In this document: positions 50,996 to 59,047 of the stretch, in pieces | Position numbering within the stretch: the first letter of the stretch is position 1 | Layout of the letters: every line of letters begins with the position of its first letter | Assembly: GCA_041648395.1 (NCBI GenBank) | Contig: JBAZPC010000002.1 | Coordinates: 29,181 to 93,180, forward strand | DNA length: 64,000 nucleotides | Direction: 5' to 3' | From: Minisyncoccota bacterium | GTDB taxonomy: Bacteria > Patescibacteriota > Minisyncoccia > UBA9983 | Translations under genes and position numbers: made by a program | The notes under the pieces: generated by a model | Seen by the model: the letters and a program-made list of their open reading frames with translations, nothing else | Databases searched by the model: none | Told to the model about the DNA's origin: nothing

Positions 50996-53900
50996 ATGAA
51001 AAAAATTATGAATAAAAATTTAATATTGTTTTCAGGGCTGATAATTTTAGTCGGAGTTTTGGCGCCAACAGTTTTTGCGCAGGCCGCGTATTTTAATACT
51101 GACCCATCGGATCATCCAATATTAAGGGTTGCCAACGCCACAAAAAATCCTTTTTGCACCAGTTGCTGGAATTCAACGGTCACGGCCGATGCCGGCGACA
51201 TTGTTGATTTTGATATTTATTACCACAACACGTCCAGTGAGAAAGCCATTCAGACAATGGTCAACGCCATTCTTCCGTCCGGCAGTTCAAACTCTTTTAC
51301 GGTTTCTGGCAGTGTTTGGGCGCAAAACGCTTCCATGATAAGCGGTTCCGCTCTTATCAATCTTACTTCAAGCCAAAGCTTGTCGTTTATTCCCGGCTCT
51401 GTCAGATGGTATCCCAATCAATCGGCGTCTTTTTCTCCGCTTCTTAACGGGCAGTCCGGCGCTGAAATTATCACTGCGTCCGGTTTGAATATCGGCGACA
51501 TCGCCGCGGGATGGAGCACTCAAGGCCATGTTGTTTTTGGAGTTCAGGTGAGCGGCAGCCCAAATCCTCCTCCCTCGTCTCCTACGGTTTCTATTTCTGC
51601 CTCTCCGAATCCCGTTAATTATAATTCCACAACAAACTTAACATGGTCCTCAACCAATGCCACTTCATGTACCGCTTCCGGCGGATGGTCTGGAACAAAA
51701 GCGACTTCTGGTTCTGAAACAACCGGTTCTCTTGCAAGCGCCCAAACCTACACCCTCACCTGCACGGGCTCTGGCGGAACGACTTCAAATAGCGTTACTG
51801 TCAACGTTAATCAACAACAGGGCCAAGCGCCGACAGTGAACACAAACTCTGCCACCAATGTCGGGCAAATTTCAGCCACTCTTAATGGCTCAATCAATCC
51901 CAATTCCAGCGCCGCTAACGTCTGGTTTGAATGGGGAACAACGCAATCAAGTTTAACTAACACTATCACTTACGGCGGAATCGGCGCAGGCGCTTCGGCT
52001 GTCAACGCCTCCATGACGGTTTCCGGCCTCAACCAGAACACCACTTACTATTTTCGCGCTGTCGCGCAAAACTCCTTTGGCACCGTTCAAGGCCAGATTT
52101 TGAGTTTTACCACAGGAGGTGGAGGGGGAACTGGTTTACCGACAATCACCACAAATCCTGCCACCAACATTGTCCAAACTTCCGCTGACCTTAACGGCGC
52201 CGTCAATCCGAACGGCAGCAATACTAACGCTTGGTTTGAATATGGCACTACCCAATCATTTGGCAGCACCACCACCCAGGTTTCTCAAGGTTCGGGTTCT
52301 TCTAATATTAATTTCGTCAGAAACATTACTGGTCTTCAAAACAACACTACTTATTATTATAGGGCCATTGCTCAAAATTCTTTTGGAACGGTAAACGGTT
52401 CAACGCTTAATTTCACAACTTCTAGCGGTGGCGGGGGAGGGGGAGGAGGCGGTAGCCTCCCTGTTGTAAATACAGGGGATGCGTCAAATATTACAGACAC
52501 ATCCGCGGTATTAAAAGGTTATGCTAACCCCAATAACAGCGATACGAACGCGTGGTTTGAATGGGGTAGGGCTGTCGATGGTCTTGTTAATGTCACAAAT
52601 CAGCAGAATGTAGGGGGCGGAACTTCTTATGTGTCATTTCTTTCTGGTATAACAGGACTCACTTCTGGAACTGTTTATGTTTATCGCGCTGTCGCTCAAA
52701 ATGCCGCTGGCACGGCCTTTGGTTCTACTTTGAGTTTTACAGCCACTGGAGGTGGCGGCGGTGGCGGAGGAGGCGGTGGCGGAGGAGGCGGCTCTTGTTT
52801 GCCTATTGTCACAACTAATTCTGCCAGCTTTATAACCAAGGATTCAGCAACCTTAAGGGGACTTGTGAATCCGCAAGGCCGTTCAACAAGCGGTTGGTTT
52901 GAATATGGCAAATCATACGCTTTAACAAACAGAACTGAATCGCAAACAGCCGGCAGCGGTTCGGTTGATACCGATATATTAAAATATCTCGCCAGCATTG
53001 AATCAAATACCAGCTATTATTTCAGGACCGTGGCTCAAAATAATTGCGGTTCGGCGTACGGCAGTATTGTGAGTTTTACCACAGGGCTTGGCAACGGTAA
53101 TCCGCCGGAAGTCATAACTTTAGCGGCAACAAACATAACTCAAACATCAGCCACCATAAACGGAAACGTTAATCCCAATAATTATGACGTCTCGGCGTGG
53201 TTTGAATGGGGGACAAATCCGACTTTATCAGCTTATACTATTACCCCTACGTCAAATCTCGGCTCGGGAAATTTGTTTAAAGCGATAAGTTCAATGCCTT
53301 ACGGCTTGGCGAACAATTCTGTTTATTATTATCGCGCCGTTGCCCAGAATACCTTTGGCGTCGCGCGCGGAACAATCTTAAATTTTACAACTGGGAAAGT
53401 AGAAGCTCCTATCCCCGGTGTCAGTTTTTCTGTCTGGAAAGAAACAAAAAATCTTTCCTTTCCCAACGGCACGATTTATGTTAATTCATCTTCTATCGGC
53501 GATACGTTGGAATTTTCTCTAAACATAAAAAACAAAAGCTCTGACACATTAAGAAATATCATTGTGAAAGACAAAATTTCTTCTTACTTTGATTTCGTGG
53601 AATCAAGCCCCGGAATCAGTTCTAATTCCTCAGGGAATTCATTGGCGTGGAACATAGATTCTGTTGCTTCGGGGGATACAAAAACAATTACTTTTAAAAT
53701 TAAAACAAAAACTGTTGAGGAAAGCGTTGTTATTTCCAACAACTTCACAATCACTGCCGGCGGAATCACCAGAACATCAAACAGCACGACAAACATTCTT
53801 AACCCTTCTTTGATGGCGCTGGATATAGGCGTTGACAAAGACAACGTCAAGAAAAACGAGACGTACAATTATACCGTTAGGTACAGGAATATCGGAATCG

Positions 53901-54322
53901 CGGACGTTGACAATGTTTTGCTCAAAATAATTTTGCCGCAGAATGTCACCCTGAAAGATTCCCAGCCCAACTACGCCACCGCGGAGAAAAATATTCTCTT
54001 TTACAAAATCGGGAGAGTAAATAAAAACGAAAAAGGAACGATTGACATAAGCGTAAAAGTGAGCGACTCTGCCGAAAGCGGAGAAAAGTTGATTGCTACT
54101 GCTGTTCTTGATTACACCGACGCCTTTGGCGCGTCCCAGCCGAATATTTCTGCCTCAGTCACATCTGTCGTGGAGTCCGGATTCTTTGGCACTGCCGCGG
54201 CGCTTGGTTTTTCCTTTGGTGGTTCAAACTTCGGATTCTATCTTTTGTCGGCGCTCTTGCTGGCCGTCATCGGAGTGGTTGTCTACATCCGCCTTAAAGT
54301 TTCCAAGATGTTGAAAGTGTAA
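50996..54322 (+). CDS. Giant cell-surface protein: signal peptide, about 8 tandem ~95-aa repeats joined by poly-Gly linkers, DUF11-like C-terminal repeats, C-terminal TM anchor
   Basis: The repeated unit is TNxATNIxQTSAxLNGxVNPNGSxTNAWFEYGTT...YYYRAVAQNSFGT.G..L.FTT. Linkers are GGGGGGG (GGN codon runs, for example at 52747-52797). The C-terminus is FYLLSALLLAVIGVVVYI. Confidence 0.7.
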   Translation: MKKIMNKNLILFSGLIILVGVLAPTVFAQAAYFNTDPSDHPILRVANATKNPFCTSCWNSTVTADAGDIVDFDIYYHNTSSEKAIQTMVNAILPSGSSNSFTVSGSVWAQNASMISGSALINLTSSQSLSFIPGSVRWYPNQSASFSPLLNGQSGAEIITASGLNIGDIAAGWSTQGHVVFGVQVSGSPNPPPSSPTVSISASPNPVNYNSTTNLTWSSTNATSCTASGGWSGTKATSGSETTGSLASAQTYTLTCTGSGGTTSNSVTVNVNQQQGQAPTVNTNSATNVGQISATLNGSINPNSSAANVWFEWGTTQSSLTNTITYGGIGAGASAVNASMTVSGLNQNTTYYFRAVAQNSFGTVQGQILSFTTGGGGGTGLPTITTNPATNIVQTSADLNGAVNPNGSNTNAWFEYGTTQSFGSTTTQVSQGSGSSNINFVRNITGLQNNTTYYYRAIAQNSFGTVNGSTLNFTTSSGGGGGGGGGSLPVVNTGDASNITDTSAVLKGYANPNNSDTNAWFEWGRAVDGLVNVTNQQNVGGGTSYVSFLSGITGLTSGTVYVYRAVAQNAAGTAFGSTLSFTATGGGGGGGGGGGGGGGSCLPIVTTNSASFITKDSATLRGLVNPQGRSTSGWFEYGKSYALTNRTESQTAGSGSVDTDILKYLASIESNTSYYFRTVAQNNCGSAYGSIVSFTTGLGNGNPPEVITLAATNITQTSATINGNVNPNNYDVSAWFEWGTNPTLSAYTITPTSNLGSGNLFKAISSMPYGLANNSVYYYRAVAQNTFGVARGTILNFTTGKVEAPIPGVSFSVWKETKNLSFPNGTIYVNSSSIGDTLEFSLNIKNKSSDTLRNIIVKDKISSYFDFVESSPGISSNSSGNSLAWNIDSVASGDTKTITFKIKTKTVEESVVISNNFTITAGGITRTSNSTTNILNPSLMALDIGVDKDNVKKNETYNYTVRYRNIGIADVDNVLLKIILPQNVTLKDSQPNYATAEKNILFYKIGRVNKNEKGTIDISVKVSDSAESGEKLIATAVLDYTDAFGASQPNISASVTSVVESGFFGTAAALGFSFGGSNFGFYLLSALLLAVIGVVVYIRLKVSKMLKV

Positions 54323-54326
54323 ACCA

Positions 54327-54377
54327 CTTAGGAGTTGAACTCCTAAGTAACAAAAATCCCGCCCACGGCGGGATTTT
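54327..54377 (+). terminator. Two hairpins after the surface-protein gene (cttaggagttgaactcctaag; aaaatcccgcccacggcgggatttt)
   Basis: Perfect inverted repeats, the second followed by a T-run. Confidence 0.6.
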
Positions 54378-54404
54378 TGTTATAATATATGCTACAATGC
54401 CATT

Positions 54405-54671
54405 ATGACTATCCAAGAATTCATTAAAAAAAGGCGATACCTAGTTTGGTATGTCAAAGAACCGGAAAATCTTTCTCCGGAATCTATTGTGGAAGCGGTT
54501 TTGAATTACGGAAATTGGGACGATGTGCAGACCCTTATTAAAATTATGGGGATTAAAAAAGTGGCAAAAATTTTTCGCGAAAAATCAAAGCCGTCAAAAA
54601 TGGGCAGGCAAAACTATCGCTCTGAAACAAAAAATTATTTTGGGCTATATTTTAATAAATATGCCAAATAG
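54405..54671 (+). CDS. Small protein translationally coupled to the AbiEii-like gene (putative cognate partner/antitoxin)
   Basis: 88 aa. Its last 11 nt overlap the start of the downstream nucleotidyltransferase. Confidence 0.3.
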   Translation: MTIQEFIKKRRYLVWYVKEPENLSPESIVEAVLNYGNWDDVQTLIKIMGIKKVAKIFREKSKPSKMGRQNYRSETKNYFGLYFNKYAK

Positions 54672-55284
54672 AATGCATAAAGAAATTTTAACAGACGAAC
54701 AGATAAAACTATTGCCGTTGCTGGAAAAATTTTCTAAAAATTTTGGGTTGGTTGGCGGAACCGCAGTCGCGCTTCATATTGGTCACAGGAGATCAATTGA
54801 CTTTGATCTTTTTAGTTTGAAAAAATTTAACAATTTGACGCTTCAAAAAAAAATTTCCAGATATTTCAAAATTGATGAAGTTATAGTGAATAAAGCTGGC
54901 GAATATACAATCTTTATTAAAGGAGTTAAACTTACTTTTTTTCATTATAATTACCCGATTGTTTTTTCAGAACGATTGGATAAAGTTGTTAAATTGCCAA
55001 ATCTTCTGACTTTAGCGGCGATGAAATTATTCGCTATGGGCATGAGGGCAAAGTGGAAAGATTATGTTGATGTCTATTTTATTTTGAAAGAACATTACAC
55101 AATTACTGATATTGTTAAAAAGGGTGAGGAAATTTTTGGCGGAGAATGTAATGAAAAATTATTTCGTTCCCAAATGGCTTATTTTAAAGATGTTAATTAC
55201 TCTGAGTCGGTTGAATATATGAAGGGCTTTGAAGTGAGTGATAAAATTATAAAAAAAGAATTGATAAAATTTAGTTTAAAATAA
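54661..55284 (+). CDS. AbiEii/AbiGii-like (DUF1814) nucleotidyltransferase toxin
   Basis: LVGGTAVALHIGHRRSIDFDLF matches the GG-x-AL...R-S-x-D-[IF]-D core of AbiEii-family NTases. The start is set at MPNRMHKE (ATG 54661). Confidence 0.55.
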   Translation: MPNRMHKEILTDEQIKLLPLLEKFSKNFGLVGGTAVALHIGHRRSIDFDLFSLKKFNNLTLQKKISRYFKIDEVIVNKAGEYTIFIKGVKLTFFHYNYPIVFSERLDKVVKLPNLLTLAAMKLFAMGMRAKWKDYVDVYFILKEHYTITDIVKKGEEIFGGECNEKLFRSQMAYFKDVNYSESVEYMKGFEVSDKIIKKELIKFSLK

Positions 55285-55299
55285 TCAAAACCGAAAGAT

Positions 55300-57495
55300 G
55301 TGAATGCGGAAAGGAAAAATTTGGTTCTCATTGACGCTCACGCGGTTTTGCATCGCGCCTTTCACGCGCTGCCGAATTTCACTTCGTCGTCCGGCGAGCC
55401 GACGGGCGCGCTCTACGGCTTTTCCGCTTTTCTCATAAAAATAATAAAGGAACTAAAACCCGATTACATCGCCGCCTGTTATGATTTGCCTCAGCCGACT
55501 TTTCGTCACGCCGCCTATGAAAATTACAAAGCGCAGAGGCCGAAGATGGATGACATTCTGGCGAAGCAGATAAACCGCTCGCGCGACATTCTCAATGCGT
55601 TTGAAATTCCAATTTACGATTCGCCCGGCTTTGAAGCGGACGATATACTCGGCACTATCAGCCATCAACTATCAGCTTTTAGTCATCAGCTTAAAATTAT
55701 TATCGCTTCCGGTGATTTGGATACATTGCAACTGGTGAGCGATGATGATGTTGTCGTTTATACTTTGAGCAAGGGAATAAAAGAGGCGGTCATATACGAC
55801 GAGAAAGCAGTTAAAGAACGTTATGGCTTCGGTCCGGAGTTAGTGCCAGATTTTAAGGGACTGAAAGGAGACCCGTCTGATAATATTATCGGCGTCAAAG
55901 GAATAGGCGAGAAGACGGCGACAGAACTCATAAAAAAATTCGGCACCATTGAAAATTTATACAAAGAAATTAAAAAGGACTCAGAGATATTAAAAAAAGA
56001 AGGATTCAAACCGAAGGCGATAGAAGTTTTAAAGGAAAACGAGGAGGAGGCGCTTTTCAGCAAGACCTTGGCGGAGATTAGGCGCGACGCGCCGATAAAA
56101 TTTTCTTTGGAAGGCAGCGCGTGGAAAGAATCGTTTGACATTGAAAAAGCAAAATCGCTTTTCGGCGAATTCGGTTTCAGGAGTTTGATTGGCAGAATTG
56201 GCGAGCAAAATTTCCCAAAAGAAAAAGAGGCGCCCAAACCAGAAAATTCGCTTTTTGAAAGATTCAAGGGCCAAGTGCCGGAAAAATTGTTCAACGAGAT
56301 AGAACAACCTCTTGCGGGAATTATTTCCGAGATGGAAAAAACAGGCATTCTTCTTGATATCGCTTATTTGAAAAAATTATCAAAAGATTACCACGGCGAA
56401 CTGGAAAAACTTGAGAAAAAAATATGGAAATTGGCTGGACGGGAATTCAACATTAATTCGCCGAAGCAACTGGGAGAAATCATTTTTGATAAACTGGGAT
56501 TGAAAACAAAAAATCGTTCCACGGACGCCGGAGAATTGGCAAAACTGAAGGGCGCGCACCCTATCATAGAAGAAATCGTTTCTTATCGCGAGCTGGCTAA
56601 ACTTCTTTCAACTTATGTTGACACCTTGCCGAAGTTGGCGGACAAAAACGGCCGGCTGCACACGACCTTTGACCAGGCAGGCACGACCACGGGCAGAATT
56701 TCTTCAAAAAATCCCAATCTCCAAAACATTCCCAAGCGCACGGAGTTGGGAAGAAACGTGCGAAGGGCGTTCATCGTGGACAAAGGGTTCAAGTTAGTGA
56801 GTTTTGATTATTCGCAGATTGAATTGAGAGTGCTGGCGATTTTAAGCGAAGACAAAAAGCTTTTGGAAGTTTTCAAGAAAAATGAGGATGTGCATGATAC
56901 TGTCGCCTCTGAAGTTTTCGGAGTTCCCAAAAACAAAGTTACAGCAGAAATGAGAAGGCGAGCCAAAGTAATAAACTTCGGAATCATTTATGGCATGGGC
57001 ATTAACGCGCTAAAAATGAATCTTGAAACGACAAAAGAGGAAGCGCAGAAATTTTACGACGAATACTTTGCGCACTTCAAAGGCGTGGCGGATTACATTA
57101 AAAGGGTGAAAGAGGACGCCCGCAGAAAGGGCTTCACTGAAACTTTGTTCGGGAGAAAAAGATATTTTCCGGAAATAAAATCTTCTCTTGAATACGTGAG
57201 AAAAGAAGCGGAGCGCATGGCAGTGAACGCGCCGCTGCAAGGCACGGCGGCGGATTTTATTAAATTAGCCATGGTAAGAATAAACGAGGCGCTGGAAAAG
57301 AAGTCGTTAAAATCAAAAGCGCGCCTGCTCTTGCAAATCCATGACGAACTTGTTTTTGAAATAGAAGAGAAAAGTATTTCTGAAATAGCGCCGGAAATAA
57401 AGAAAATTATGGAAAGCGTCTATGAAGGCGATATACCCATGGAGACCCGCGTTGTTGCGGGAAAAAATTGGGAGGATATGGTAGAATGCAAATAA
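55300..57495 (+). CDS. polA: DNA polymerase I (5'-3' exonuclease + polymerase; no obvious 3'-5' exonuclease)
   Basis: FEN-like N-terminus (LIDAHAVLHRAF, GVKGIGEKTA) and Pol A motifs (DYSQIELR, KVINFGIIYG, HDELVFE). Confidence 0.95.
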   Translation: MNAERKNLVLIDAHAVLHRAFHALPNFTSSSGEPTGALYGFSAFLIKIIKELKPDYIAACYDLPQPTFRHAAYENYKAQRPKMDDILAKQINRSRDILNAFEIPIYDSPGFEADDILGTISHQLSAFSHQLKIIIASGDLDTLQLVSDDDVVVYTLSKGIKEAVIYDEKAVKERYGFGPELVPDFKGLKGDPSDNIIGVKGIGEKTATELIKKFGTIENLYKEIKKDSEILKKEGFKPKAIEVLKENEEEALFSKTLAEIRRDAPIKFSLEGSAWKESFDIEKAKSLFGEFGFRSLIGRIGEQNFPKEKEAPKPENSLFERFKGQVPEKLFNEIEQPLAGIISEMEKTGILLDIAYLKKLSKDYHGELEKLEKKIWKLAGREFNINSPKQLGEIIFDKLGLKTKNRSTDAGELAKLKGAHPIIEEIVSYRELAKLLSTYVDTLPKLADKNGRLHTTFDQAGTTTGRISSKNPNLQNIPKRTELGRNVRRAFIVDKGFKLVSFDYSQIELRVLAILSEDKKLLEVFKKNEDVHDTVASEVFGVPKNKVTAEMRRRAKVINFGIIYGMGINALKMNLETTKEEAQKFYDEYFAHFKGVADYIKRVKEDARRKGFTETLFGRKRYFPEIKSSLEYVRKEAERMAVNAPLQGTAADFIKLAMVRINEALEKKSLKSKARLLLQIHDELVFEIEEKSISEIAPEIKKIMESVYEGDIPMETRVVAGKNWEDMVECK

Positions 57496-57496
57496 T

Positions 57497-57877
57497 ATGG
57501 CGAAAGAATCAATTTTAATAGTAGAAGACGACAAGTTTTTCAGGGACTTGGTCTCAAAAAAGCTTGAAAAGAACGGCTTTGAAATGCTTTTGGCCGCCGA
57601 CAGCAAGGAGACGCTTACCCTTTTGGAAGAAAAAAAGCCGTCTCTCATAATTTCAGACCTGATTCTCCCTGGGCTGGACGGCTTTGAACTTATTTCTATT
57701 ATAAAAAAAGACGAAAAGACCAAAGACATACCCGTGATAGTTTTAAGCAACCTTGGGCAAAAAGAAGAAATAGAGAGGGCAATGTCGTTGGGCGCGATTG
57801 ATTTTATGGTCAAAGTGAATTTTACACCAGATGAGATTGTGGAAAAAATCAAAAGGGTCTTAAGCGGAAGGATTTAG
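57497..57877 (+). CDS. Stand-alone response-regulator receiver (REC) domain protein
   Basis: ILIVEDD...D (phospho-acceptor ISDLILPGLDG)...K pattern. 126 aa. Confidence 0.8.
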   Translation: MAKESILIVEDDKFFRDLVSKKLEKNGFEMLLAADSKETLTLLEEKKPSLIISDLILPGLDGFELISIIKKDEKTKDIPVIVLSNLGQKEEIERAMSLGAIDFMVKVNFTPDEIVEKIKRVLSGRI

Positions 57878-57882
57878 GAGCC

Positions 57883-58647
57883 ATGATATATCTTCTTTAT
57901 GGAAAAGATGCAGTGAAGAGCAGACAGAAGTTAAATGAGCTTCTGTATTTTTTTCGTTCCAAAGACAGCAATGTTTCTATTTTTAAAATTGACGAATACG
58001 ATTTTGAAAAAGAAAAACTAGAAGAGCTGTCCCGTTCCAGCACGCTTTTCGGTGGAAAGGTGGTTGTGGTATTCAATAGGATATTTGACGACAAAAATAT
58101 TTCAAAAATTATTCTGGAAAATTTGGACGTGTACGCCGCTTCCAAAAATATTTTTATTTTTTATGAGGAAGAAGTGGACGACAAAAATTTTGATTTAATC
58201 AAAGAAAAAGCGAAGAAAGTTCAGAAATTTAATCTGCCTGCAGGTAGGGAACTAAAAACAAGTAAATTTGGCGGAAAGGACTACGGCGACTATAATCCCT
58301 TTCTTATCTGCGACGCCGTCGGCGAGAAAAATAAAAAAAAGGCGTGGCTTTTATTCCAAGATGCGCTTTTTAAAGGCGTGCCGGCGGAGGAAGTTTTTTG
58401 GAAAATTTGGTGGCAGGCAAAGACAATGCTTTCCGTTAAAATCGCGTCCGATGCGGGAGTAAAAAATCTTGAAAAGGAAACTGGCTTTCATCCGTATGTG
58501 GTAAAGAAAAATCTCGGCTTCTTGAGAAATTTCAGCTTCAAAGAACTTGATATTTTTTCCTGGAAACTCGTGGAGCTTTATCACAACGCCCGCCGTGGCC
58601 TGGCCGATTTCGAAATCGGCTTGGAGAAAATTTTAGTTAACTTTTAA
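57883..58647 (+). CDS. holA: DNA polymerase III delta-subunit-like protein (HolA-like, short)
   Basis: N-terminal MIYLLYGKDAVKSRQKLNEL pattern of delta subunits. 254 aa. Confidence 0.5.
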   Translation: MIYLLYGKDAVKSRQKLNELLYFFRSKDSNVSIFKIDEYDFEKEKLEELSRSSTLFGGKVVVVFNRIFDDKNISKIILENLDVYAASKNIFIFYEEEVDDKNFDLIKEKAKKVQKFNLPAGRELKTSKFGGKDYGDYNPFLICDAVGEKNKKKAWLLFQDALFKGVPAEEVFWKIWWQAKTMLSVKIASDAGVKNLEKETGFHPYVVKKNLGFLRNFSFKELDIFSWKLVELYHNARRGLADFEIGLEKILVNF

Positions 58648-58675: not shown

Positions 58676-59047
58676 ATGGAAAAAATTAAAATTCTTGTCG
58701 TAGAAGACGACGACTTTTTTAGAGATACTGTTGCTAAAAGATTAGAACGGGAGGGGTTTGATGTGTCTTCTGCTGGGAACAGCAAAGAGGCGTTGGAAAT
58801 TTTAGAGACAAAAAAGCCAAACATTGTCTTACTAGACATAATTCTTCCCGGAATGGACGGCTTTGAACTTCTTTCTCTAATTAAGAAAACAGAGAGTATA
58901 AAGGACATTTCCGTAATGATTTTAAGTAATCTGGGTCAAAAACAGGACATTGAAAAAGCGCTTTCCTTGGGCGCGAAGGACTTTATGATTAAAGTGAATG
59001 TCAACTTGGATCAAATCGTAGAGAGAATTAAAAAAGAAATTTCTTAA
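58676..59047 (+). CDS. Second stand-alone REC-domain protein (paralog of 57497-57877, about 55% identical)
   Basis: ILVVEDDDFFRD...LLDIILPGMDGFELLSLIKK...LSNLGQKQDIEKALSLGAKDFMIKV. Confidence 0.8.
   Translation: MEKIKILVVEDDDFFRDTVAKRLEREGFDVSSAGNSKEALEILETKKPNIVLLDIILPGMDGFELLSLIKKTESIKDISVMILSNLGQKQDIEKALSLGAKDFMIKVNVNLDQIVERIKKEIS

Follow-up and report, generated by a model that had tools for sequence, protein, structure and literature searches.

The DNA analysed here is a stretch of 64,000 nucleotides from a Minisyncoccota bacterium of the Patescibacteriota (assembly GCA_041648395.1, contig JBAZPC010000002.1, positions 29,181 to 93,180), referred to as the window, and the question it raises is what a gene for a protein of only 88 residues is doing directly in front of a gene for an AbiEii-like nucleotidyltransferase (NTase). 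NTase toxins of the DUF1814 family, such as AbiEii and MenT, rank with the most abundant components of toxin and defence systems. The original prediction, made from the sequence alone, had described the two genes as a non-canonical abortive-infection (Abi) module, and both open reading frames (ORFs) are indeed found on the forward strand at the positions it gave (ORF1 at 54405-54671, the NTase ending at 55284). Of several possible explanations for this arrangement, we favour a toxin-antitoxin cassette of the MenAT kind that uses a new family of antitoxin; we regard this as probable, toxicity and neutralisation being what we infer from the sequence data.

The nucleotidyltransferase

Family model, fold and motifs agree in assigning the downstream gene to the AbiEii/DUF1814 family, as had been proposed. 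The Pfam model AbiEii (PF08843) matches residues 23-153 of the 207-residue form with 40 bits against a cut-off of 22.5 (E 5.7e-10), and more than 7,500 homologues of the protein were found. Neither the NTase nor ORF1 has a match in NCBIfam or PHROGs, and searches of the PDB sequences with the single proteins and with family profiles returned nothing meaningful (best E 0.95-2.4 for the NTase and 0.34 for ORF1). The AlphaFold2 (AF2) model of the NTase (pLDDT 94) has the bilobed fold of the MenT/AbiEii-like NTases: the top Foldseek matches in the PDB are MenT1 (8an5_B), JHP933 (4o8s), MenT4 (6y56) and MenT3/TglT (6j7p), with a probability of 1.00 and TM-scores of 0.46-0.61, and these folds are followed by CCA-adding enzymes as the next structural matches.

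Dy et al. defined four motifs for DUF1814, of which I and II have the form hG[GS]x9-15DhD (PMC3985639), and all four are recognised in the NTase (Table 1). The peptide GGTAVALHIGHRRSIDFDLF, quoted in the original prediction, is present and represents a polymerase-beta-type G[GS]...DxD core, in which V27-G28-G29 is followed after 13 residues by D43-F-D45, with R39 four residues ahead of D43. Among 96 paired homologues, G28, R39, S41, K118, D130 and D133 are identical in all, and D43, D45, R125 and K129 in all except one. Absence of the catalytic aspartates had been named as a finding that would speak against the enzyme; D43 and D45 are present and near-invariant (95/96), so the assignment holds. 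As the motifs are intact and near-invariant, the NTase, which from sequence and model is a short DUF1814 enzyme of MenT1 size, looks catalytically intact. Residue S41 lies two positions ahead of the first catalytic aspartate, and it is the equivalent position that carries the phospho-acceptor in MenT3 (S78), MenT1 (T39) and AbiEii (T65) (PMC11375011; bioRxiv 10.64898/2026.01.19.700257).

A small partner related to DUF6922

The Pfam search of both ORFs, as the original prediction had advised, places the NTase in AbiEii above the cut-off, while for ORF1 the sole match is to DUF6922 (PF21956), at 22.7 bits against a cut-off of 27 (E 6.7e-5). The same match below the cut-off is obtained for all 23 of a set of close ORF1 homologues; a precomputed PF21956 label is attached to 4 of the 120 closest homologues, and 51 of 118 representatives of the family match DUF6922 at E <= 0.01, the best at 2.6e-9. 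When residues 7-59 are compared by hhalign with a true DUF6922 protein of Hymenobacter, the two align with an E-value of 4e-5 and a probability of 70%. By sequence similarity, ORF1 is a divergent DUF6922 domain (approximately residues 5-59) at the edge of the Pfam model, and is no orphan, as it belongs to a DUF6922-related family. Our literature search found no paper that mentions DUF6922, and the partner family is apparently uncharacterised and undescribed; the toxin family is already known.

The homologues listed for ORF1 number 674, nearly all of 87-96 residues, and the 120 closest are 69-100% identical to it, every source name shown being that of a Patescibacteria lineage. The window itself belongs to a metagenome-assembled genome assigned to Candidatus Paceibacterota. 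A profile search of 1.84 billion representative proteins retrieved 367 clusters of the family (clustered at 50% identity), 183 of them at E <= 1e-10 and almost all with proteins of 85-120 residues. The broad alignment of the family (A5) proved too heterogeneous for a pattern scan, in place of which a narrower clade (A6) was taken. The signature of the family can be written as W15, E30-x-x-L-N-Y-G36, F57, R/K68-x-N70-Y71 and Y/F-F79-x-L-Y-F83. In the paired homologues L13, W15, E30, L33, N34, G36, F57, N70, F79 and F83 are invariant (96 of 96), and Y71 is shared by 90. The C-terminal tail is conserved, and consists of a basic loop, the R68-x-N70-Y71 motif and an aromatic helix (YFxLYF).

The structural model of ORF1 is a compact domain of five to six helices, for which no match was found among solved structures and no winged helix-turn-helix (wHTH), AbiEi-like or HEPN-like fold was recognised. 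Neither Pfam nor PADLOC gave an AbiEi match for ORF1, and no PADLOC model matched it at all. The partner is thus non-canonical, as had been supposed from its small size, and the recommended search of defence-system catalogues (PADLOC) brought out just one member of the pair, the NTase, with weak matches to the AbiEii models.

The two genes occur together

Lack of conservation of the upstream ORF had been named as the other finding that would count against a two-gene module. The opposite is observed: in each of three unrelated contexts, the gene for a homologous NTase is immediately preceded by a homologue of ORF1 (3/3), and the same holds for 80 of 80 species-representative genomes. Relatives belonging to the clade of the NTase were confirmed in at least 586 species genomes (one genome per species), and the counts for pairing, junction and context given here refer to the best 80 of these, which come from many Patescibacteria lineages. 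ORF1 is full-length in 77 of them, is cut by the contig end in two (L037, L053), and has an alignment five residues short in the last (L041). Both proteins have a median identity of approximately 59-60% across these lineages.

Sampling in the reverse direction gave a similar picture. Among 80 metagenome loci seeded with a distant ORF1 clade (35-47% mutual identity), NTase similarity is encoded in 73, and an NTase of the same family, intact or cut only by the contig end, lies directly downstream in 66 of the 78 that could be evaluated (two have no room downstream).

Covariation between the two proteins (MI-APC on 96 pairs, Neff 75, phylogeny not removed) links a patch around R72/E74 of ORF1 with NTase residues 72-77 (z 6-8), that is, the start of the C-terminal helix of ORF1 (approximately 54618-54629) with a beta-hairpin loop of the NTase (approximately 54886-54903); the other top covarying pairs are clade markers at nearly invariant sites. 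This exploratory and under-powered analysis gives a hint of a contact between ORF1 residues 72-75 and NTase residues 72-77.

One-sided decay and domain fusions

Where the pair has decayed, it is the enzyme that has been lost or broken. ORF1 is kept without a working adjacent NTase at 12 of the 78 evaluable ORF1-seeded loci, six of which have no NTase (L096, L102, L116, L135, L136, L168) and six a broken one. In L147 (1263-1871) the NTase gene has a nonsense TAA at K86, and in L114 (1185-1778) the codon of the invariant W128 is TGA and the DxD is damaged as well; in both, an ORF1-like gene lies alongside and is open over the matched segment. The remaining four (L123, 2501-3097; L151; L152; L160) carry deletions that remove the 3' end of ORF1 along with the catalytic N-terminal half of the NTase, and what remains in L123, as in the protein P0325, is ORF1 fused in frame to the C-terminal part of the NTase. 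The TGA of L114, which stands at a Trp codon, may have arisen from TGG by simple mutation or may point to recoding of UGA.

The converse case, an NTase without ORF1, was found at none of the 80 NTase-seeded loci. On a more conservative count of 9 the asymmetry gives a Fisher p of 0.0014, the two sets of loci so compared being different collections from different clades. Such one-sided decay is the pattern to be expected if the NTase were harmful without ORF1.

The usual layout of an antitoxin combines one part that binds DNA with another that neutralises the toxin. Longer relatives have the ORF1 domain C-terminal to one of four DNA-binding domains, all scoring above the Pfam cut-off, of which three are of the helix-turn-helix (HTH) or wHTH type (HTH_17 in P0251, HTH_3 in P0283, HTH_24 in P0331) and one is ribbon-helix-helix (RHH_1 in P0257). 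A weak AbiEi_4 match is seen in P0288.

Gene junction and start of the nucleotidyltransferase

Two in-frame ATG codons compete as the start of the NTase gene. The first, at 54661, yields the 207-residue protein that is also annotated by NCBI (P0121), with an overlap of 11 nt with ORF1; the second, at 54673, is one base past the ORF1 stop and yields 203 residues. A length of 203 residues is found in 63 of the 120 closest NTase homologues, and the aligned homologues start with MHKEIL, which corresponds to the second ATG. According to a DNA alignment of junctions from nine loci, the family-typical junction is TATGCATAA, where ORF1 ends in YA plus stop and the NTase begins with MHK, the two overlapping by 8 nt; this overlap is present in 61 of the 80 species loci. 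Relative to that junction, the window has a 12-nt in-frame insertion, as a result of which both ATGs are in frame. The 207-residue product with its 11-nt overlap, as originally described, is thus a legitimate ORF, but its start is ambiguous and the norm of the family is 8 nt rather than 11. With either start, translational coupling of the NTase to ORF1 is plausible from the arrangement of the codons.

Autonomy of the cassette

The pair stands out from its surroundings by base composition, with a GC content of 0.345 for ORF1 and 0.299 for the NTase (0.275 at third codon positions), approximately 12-15 percentage points below the flanking genes (0.44-0.46; window 0.404).

It also appears to carry its own promoter. 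The extended -10 element ahead of ORF1, TGCTACAAT, was found by comparing loci and was not reported by the consensus scan for promoters. The pattern TGnTAnnnT ends 6-10 nt before the ORF1 start at 41 of 64 loci, including the window, most often at 7 nt (24 loci); shuffled controls averaged 1.0 and never exceeded 4. A Shine-Dalgarno-like motif precedes ORF1 at 1 of 63 loci. As the -10 box lies 7 nt ahead of the ORF1 ATG, the mRNA of ORF1 would be leaderless or nearly so, judging from position only.

The genes flanking the 80 species loci belong to 83 Pfam families downstream and 80 upstream, none of which recurs more than four times, and one metagenome-assembled genome contains two copies of the cassette (L023, L038). 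The general layout of toxin-antitoxin systems is found, with the putative antitoxin first, overlapping genes, variable context, and a patchy, multi-copy distribution. A cassette that is autonomous and moves horizontally is, in our view, the best explanation of the sequence data.

Comparison with known systems

Two known systems were tried as an identity for the pair. It is not AbiE in the strict sense (COG5340-COG2253), because the AbiEi/COG5340 partner proved absent when tested. Nor is it MenAT1, because homology to MenA1 is lacking: phmmer and profile searches of a PDB set including 8an5 gave no MenA1 match at E <= 10, and structural comparison did not retrieve the antitoxin chain of 8an5.

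With MenAT1 of Mycobacterium tuberculosis (Rv0078B/Rv0078A) the pair shares a short DUF1814 NTase of approximately 190-200 residues, a small upstream antitoxin without a DNA-binding domain, and a hydroxyl residue two positions ahead of the first catalytic aspartate (T39 in MenT1, S41 in the window). MenT1 is the best structural match of the NTase (8an5_B, E 1.2e-5, TM 0.56-0.61), although the sequence identity is only about 16%. MenA1, however, is a two-helix V of 68 residues, whereas the model of the 88-residue ORF1 is a compact domain of five to six helices, and the two are similar in neither sequence nor fold; MenA1 homologues are few (21 genes; PMC10435456), while pairs of the window type occur in at least 586 species genomes. 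JHP933 of Helicobacter pylori (4o8s, 4ok0), an NTase of the DUF1814 superfamily, ranks second among the structural matches (E 1.5e-5), again with about 16% identity.

AbiE of Streptococcus agalactiae and Lactococcus, MenAT3 and MenAT4 are, like the pair, bicistronic with the antitoxin first and a PF08843 toxin with motifs I-IV, and the R-x-[ST]-x-D-x-D active-site loop of the AbiEii/MenT3 type, the site of antitoxin-induced auto-phosphorylation, is shared by the NTase. In contrast, their antitoxins AbiEi, MenA3 and MenA4 are COG5340 proteins of approximately 200-300 residues with an N-terminal wHTH and an alpha/beta C-terminal domain, neither of which ORF1 has, and the NTase is some 80-100 residues shorter than AbiEii, MenT3 and MenT4. 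The MenA antitoxins themselves fall into three families that are unrelated to one another (PMC11375011), and MenA1 (68 aa; PMC10435456) provides a precedent for the control of a DUF1814 toxin by a small unrelated antitoxin. For AbiEii in Patescibacteria or the candidate phyla radiation, the literature search found genome-description papers only, and the one that was checked mentions canonical AbiEi-AbiEii.

Plasmid relatives in other phyla

The association is also seen between true DUF6922 proteins and NTases outside the Patescibacteria. In all six Bacteroidota plasmid records with a DUF6922-like ORF (hosts Hymenobacter, Bacteroides, Phocaeicola and Microscilla), this gene is located directly upstream of, or overlaps, one for an AbiEii/AbiGii-family NTase, as in the window. 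The protein from the Hymenobacter plasmid has 116 residues (65.9 bits to DUF6922), while that from a Bacteroides fragilis plasmid combines HTH_3 with DUF6922 (75.4 bits). ORF1 lacks the XRE HTH of the Bacteroides and Phocaeicola versions, and it has a conserved C-terminal tail of its own; the plasmid NTases are 24-31% identical to that of the window, and some are full-length (307 aa). ORF1 itself has no match in plasmid sequences.

A Campylobacter plasmid (p16192 of Campylobacter sp. RM16192; L171, 1220-3405) carries a series of toxin-type genes, in which a gene for a 93-residue hypothetical protein is followed by those for an AbiEii NTase, a zeta toxin, a minimal NTase and a HepT-like RNase. 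Considered as a relative of ORF1, the 93-residue protein proved unrelated; it represents yet another small upstream partner of a short NTase.

Proposed mechanism

Enzymes of this family, namely MenT1, MenT3, MenT4 and AbiEii, extend the 3'-CCA ends of tRNAs and so stop translation (PMC10435456; bioRxiv 10.64898/2026.01.19.700257). In the mechanism that we envisage, transcription from the extended -10 promoter would give a leaderless or near-leaderless transcript on which ORF1 is translated first. Translation of the NTase would then follow through coupling, at the point where the ORF1 stop codon and the NTase start codon overlap, and because of this coupling smaller amounts of it are expected. 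The NTase would presumably extend tRNA 3'-CCA ends and halt translation, unless bound and neutralised by ORF1, which may be described as a DUF6922-like helical domain without the DNA-binding part.

Neutralisation might take one of two forms. ORF1 could occlude the active site in the way of MenA1; alternatively, it could reposition the invariant S41 toward the bound nucleoside triphosphate, such that the NTase phosphorylates itself. Auto-phosphorylation induced by the antitoxin has been described for three unrelated pairs, MenA1/MenT1, MenA3/MenT3 and AbiEi/AbiEii (PMC11375011; bioRxiv 10.64898/2026.01.19.700257).

Several observations weigh against a toxin-antitoxin cassette. The conservation of both proteins across such divergent lineages is unusual for a module of this type and could fit a physiological role. 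The neighbours are mostly housekeeping genes and give no signal of a defence island or mobile element, and no relative was found in the viral contigs of IMG/VR (searched with the NTase) or in PHROGs. The limited power of the covariation analysis and the different origins of the two locus sets in the decay comparison have to be considered as well. Finally, MenT2 has no detectable toxicity and MenT1 is non-toxic in Escherichia coli (PMC10435456), so that membership in the family does not guarantee a toxin.

Alternative explanations

The molecular mechanism may be as outlined and yet serve a different purpose, namely phage defence by abortive infection as in AbiE, rather than that of a selfish or stress-responsive cassette. 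DUF1814 toxins that protect against phages are known from AbiE, SanaTA and RlegTA (PMC3985639; bioRxiv 10.64898/2026.01.19.700257), and the PADLOC matches of the NTase, weak as they are, point in the same direction. The partner, however, matches no PADLOC model, the genes around the cassettes are housekeeping genes rather than defence islands, and phage sensing is a matter that the sequence data do not address. We consider a defence role rather unlikely. Of the module originally predicted, we thus retain a non-canonical two-gene cassette of the toxin-antitoxin type, but not the phage defence implied by the term Abi, which is unsupported by the sequence data.

A second explanation dispenses with toxicity: the NTase would be a physiological enzyme that modifies RNA, tRNA or a small molecule, and ORF1 its obligate cofactor or regulator, acting as an accessory or specificity subunit. 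This would account for the high conservation in very divergent Patescibacteria, for the housekeeping genes that often follow just downstream on the same strand, such as polA in the window, and for the missing association with phages and plasmids in the Patescibacteria clade; moreover, some DUF1814 members are not detectably toxic (PMC10435456), and the superfamily includes non-toxin functions, for example ANT(2'')-Ia. On the other hand, an enzyme and its cofactor should decay jointly, whereas it is only the NTase that is lost or broken while ORF1 stays. The marked GC dip, the private promoter, two copies in one genome and the lack of a conserved context also speak against a physiological function, and fusions of the partner domain to HTH and RHH domains are typical of antitoxins. 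We therefore regard an accessory subunit as quite improbable.

It is extremely improbable that the roles are reversed in the manner of HEPN-MNT (type VII) systems, with the NTase as an antitoxin that nucleotidylates a harmful ORF1, for example at Tyr71: MNT antitoxins reportedly AMPylate their HEPN partners, which provides a precedent, and ORF1 has a near-invariant R/K-x-N-Y motif (N70 in 96/96, Y71 in 90/96), but at 12/78 loci ORF1 is found with no NTase or a broken one next to it and so is tolerated without the enzyme, it has neither the HEPN motif Rx4-6H nor a HEPN-like fold match, its upstream position and DNA-binding fusions are those of an antitoxin, and the DUF1814 enzymes characterised so far are toxins.

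Neighbouring genes and edges

The cassette lies between a surface-protein gene and polA, as the original prediction had it, the upstream neighbour being a DUF11 repeat protein and polA starting 15 nt downstream (Table 1). Its upstream edge is likely marked by a terminator, formed by the two stem-loops 3' of the surface-protein gene; these were missed by the consensus scan because the T run probably pairs into the stem. Between the NTase gene and polA there is no terminator, so that read-through from the cassette promoter into polA is possible. The same position, a few bases upstream of a housekeeping gene on the same strand, is seen elsewhere, with a histidyl-tRNA synthetase (HisRS) gene following in L001 and L010.

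Table 1. Features of the cassette and its surroundings (positions in the window)
Feature	Position	Strand	Description
DUF11 repeat surface protein, upstream neighbour	50996-54322	+	1108 aa
Two stem-loops 3' of the surface-protein gene	54326..54382	+	cttaggag..ctcctaag, then cccgcc-cac-ggcggg and a T run; read from the sequence
Extended -10 element	54390..54398	+	TGCTACAAT; ends 7 nt ahead of the ORF1 ATG
ORF1	54405-54671	+	88 aa; predicted small all-helical protein, putative antitoxin
Gene junction	54661..54675	+	ATG 54661 inside ORF1 (ancestral start position); ORF1 stop TAG 54669-54671; second in-frame ATG 54673
DUF1814 (AbiEii/MenT-like) NTase, putative toxin	54673..55284, or from 54661	+	203 aa, or 207 aa
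NTase motifs I and II	54754..54807	+	G28-G29 ... R39-R40-S41-I42-D43-F44-D45; DxD metal-binding
NTase motifs III and IV	55024..55071	+	K118-L-F-A-M-G-M-R125 (KLxAxxxR); K129-D130-Y-V-D133 (+DxxD)
polA, downstream neighbour	55300-57495	+	731 aa; GTG start, 15 nt past the NTase stop
Stand-alone response-regulator receiver-domain gene	57497-57877	+	126 aa; similar to the gene at 58676-59047
DNA polymerase III delta (holA-like)	57883-58647		between the two receiver genes
Stand-alone response-regulator receiver-domain gene	58676-59047	+	123 aa; similar to the gene at 57497-57877

The surface protein has an N-terminal signal or anchor, a DUF11 domain and a predicted C-terminal membrane helix, and contains five tandem repeats of approximately 100 residues each (NPN..NAWFEYG..YYYRAVAQN) with poly-Gly linkers of 8-15 residues between them; the G-rich tracts that encode these linkers could be prone to slippage. 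In PolA only the 5'-3' exonuclease and family A polymerase domains are recognised, no 3'-5' exonuclease being matched by Pfam. A receiver-domain gene and then holA follow past polA; this receiver gene was assigned by Pfam and the second one by eye from its translation, in which no output domain is apparent.

Homologous cassettes have diverse company. A HicB/HicA pair is encoded near one of them (L001, 6362-6844), and in L004-L006 (2734-3639, 7329-8640) a tyrosine integrase gene is directly upstream of the cassette and three T4SS-pilin genes are downstream. A further gene of the AbiEii family is the next one downstream at 2 of 74 loci.

Implications

Nothing in these results overturns or changes the known picture of how DUF1814 toxins act; they concern the partner. 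How unrelated antitoxins control these toxins by inducing their auto-phosphorylation is a subject of current research, and if ORF1 is an antitoxin, its family would be a further one beyond the three MenA families, present on Bacteroidota plasmids and, as a stand-alone protein, widely in Patescibacteria. With 88 residues, it would offer a compact example for testing how one and the same active-site loop can be triggered or blocked by different folds.

ORF1 is annotated only as "hypothetical". The family of the pair is large, the NTase clade being present in at least 586 species genomes and the partner comprising 367 clusters. Rule-based finders of defence and toxin-antitoxin systems that require AbiEi would probably miss the cassette. 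A role in neutralising NTases, if true, would provide an annotation for the Pfam family DUF6922.

The cassette is widespread in Patescibacteria, whose small genomes hold few accessory genes. A more far-reaching proposal, to which we give an even chance of being correct, is that DUF6922-type domains constitute a fourth, structurally new class of antitoxins for DUF1814 toxins, a portable neutralising module that is found by itself in Patescibacteria and, elsewhere, joined to HTH, wHTH or RHH domains, and that the leaderless cassette is the main NTase toxin system of these ultra-small bacteria. If this is true, editing of tRNA 3' ends could gate dormancy or host dependence in Patescibacteria.

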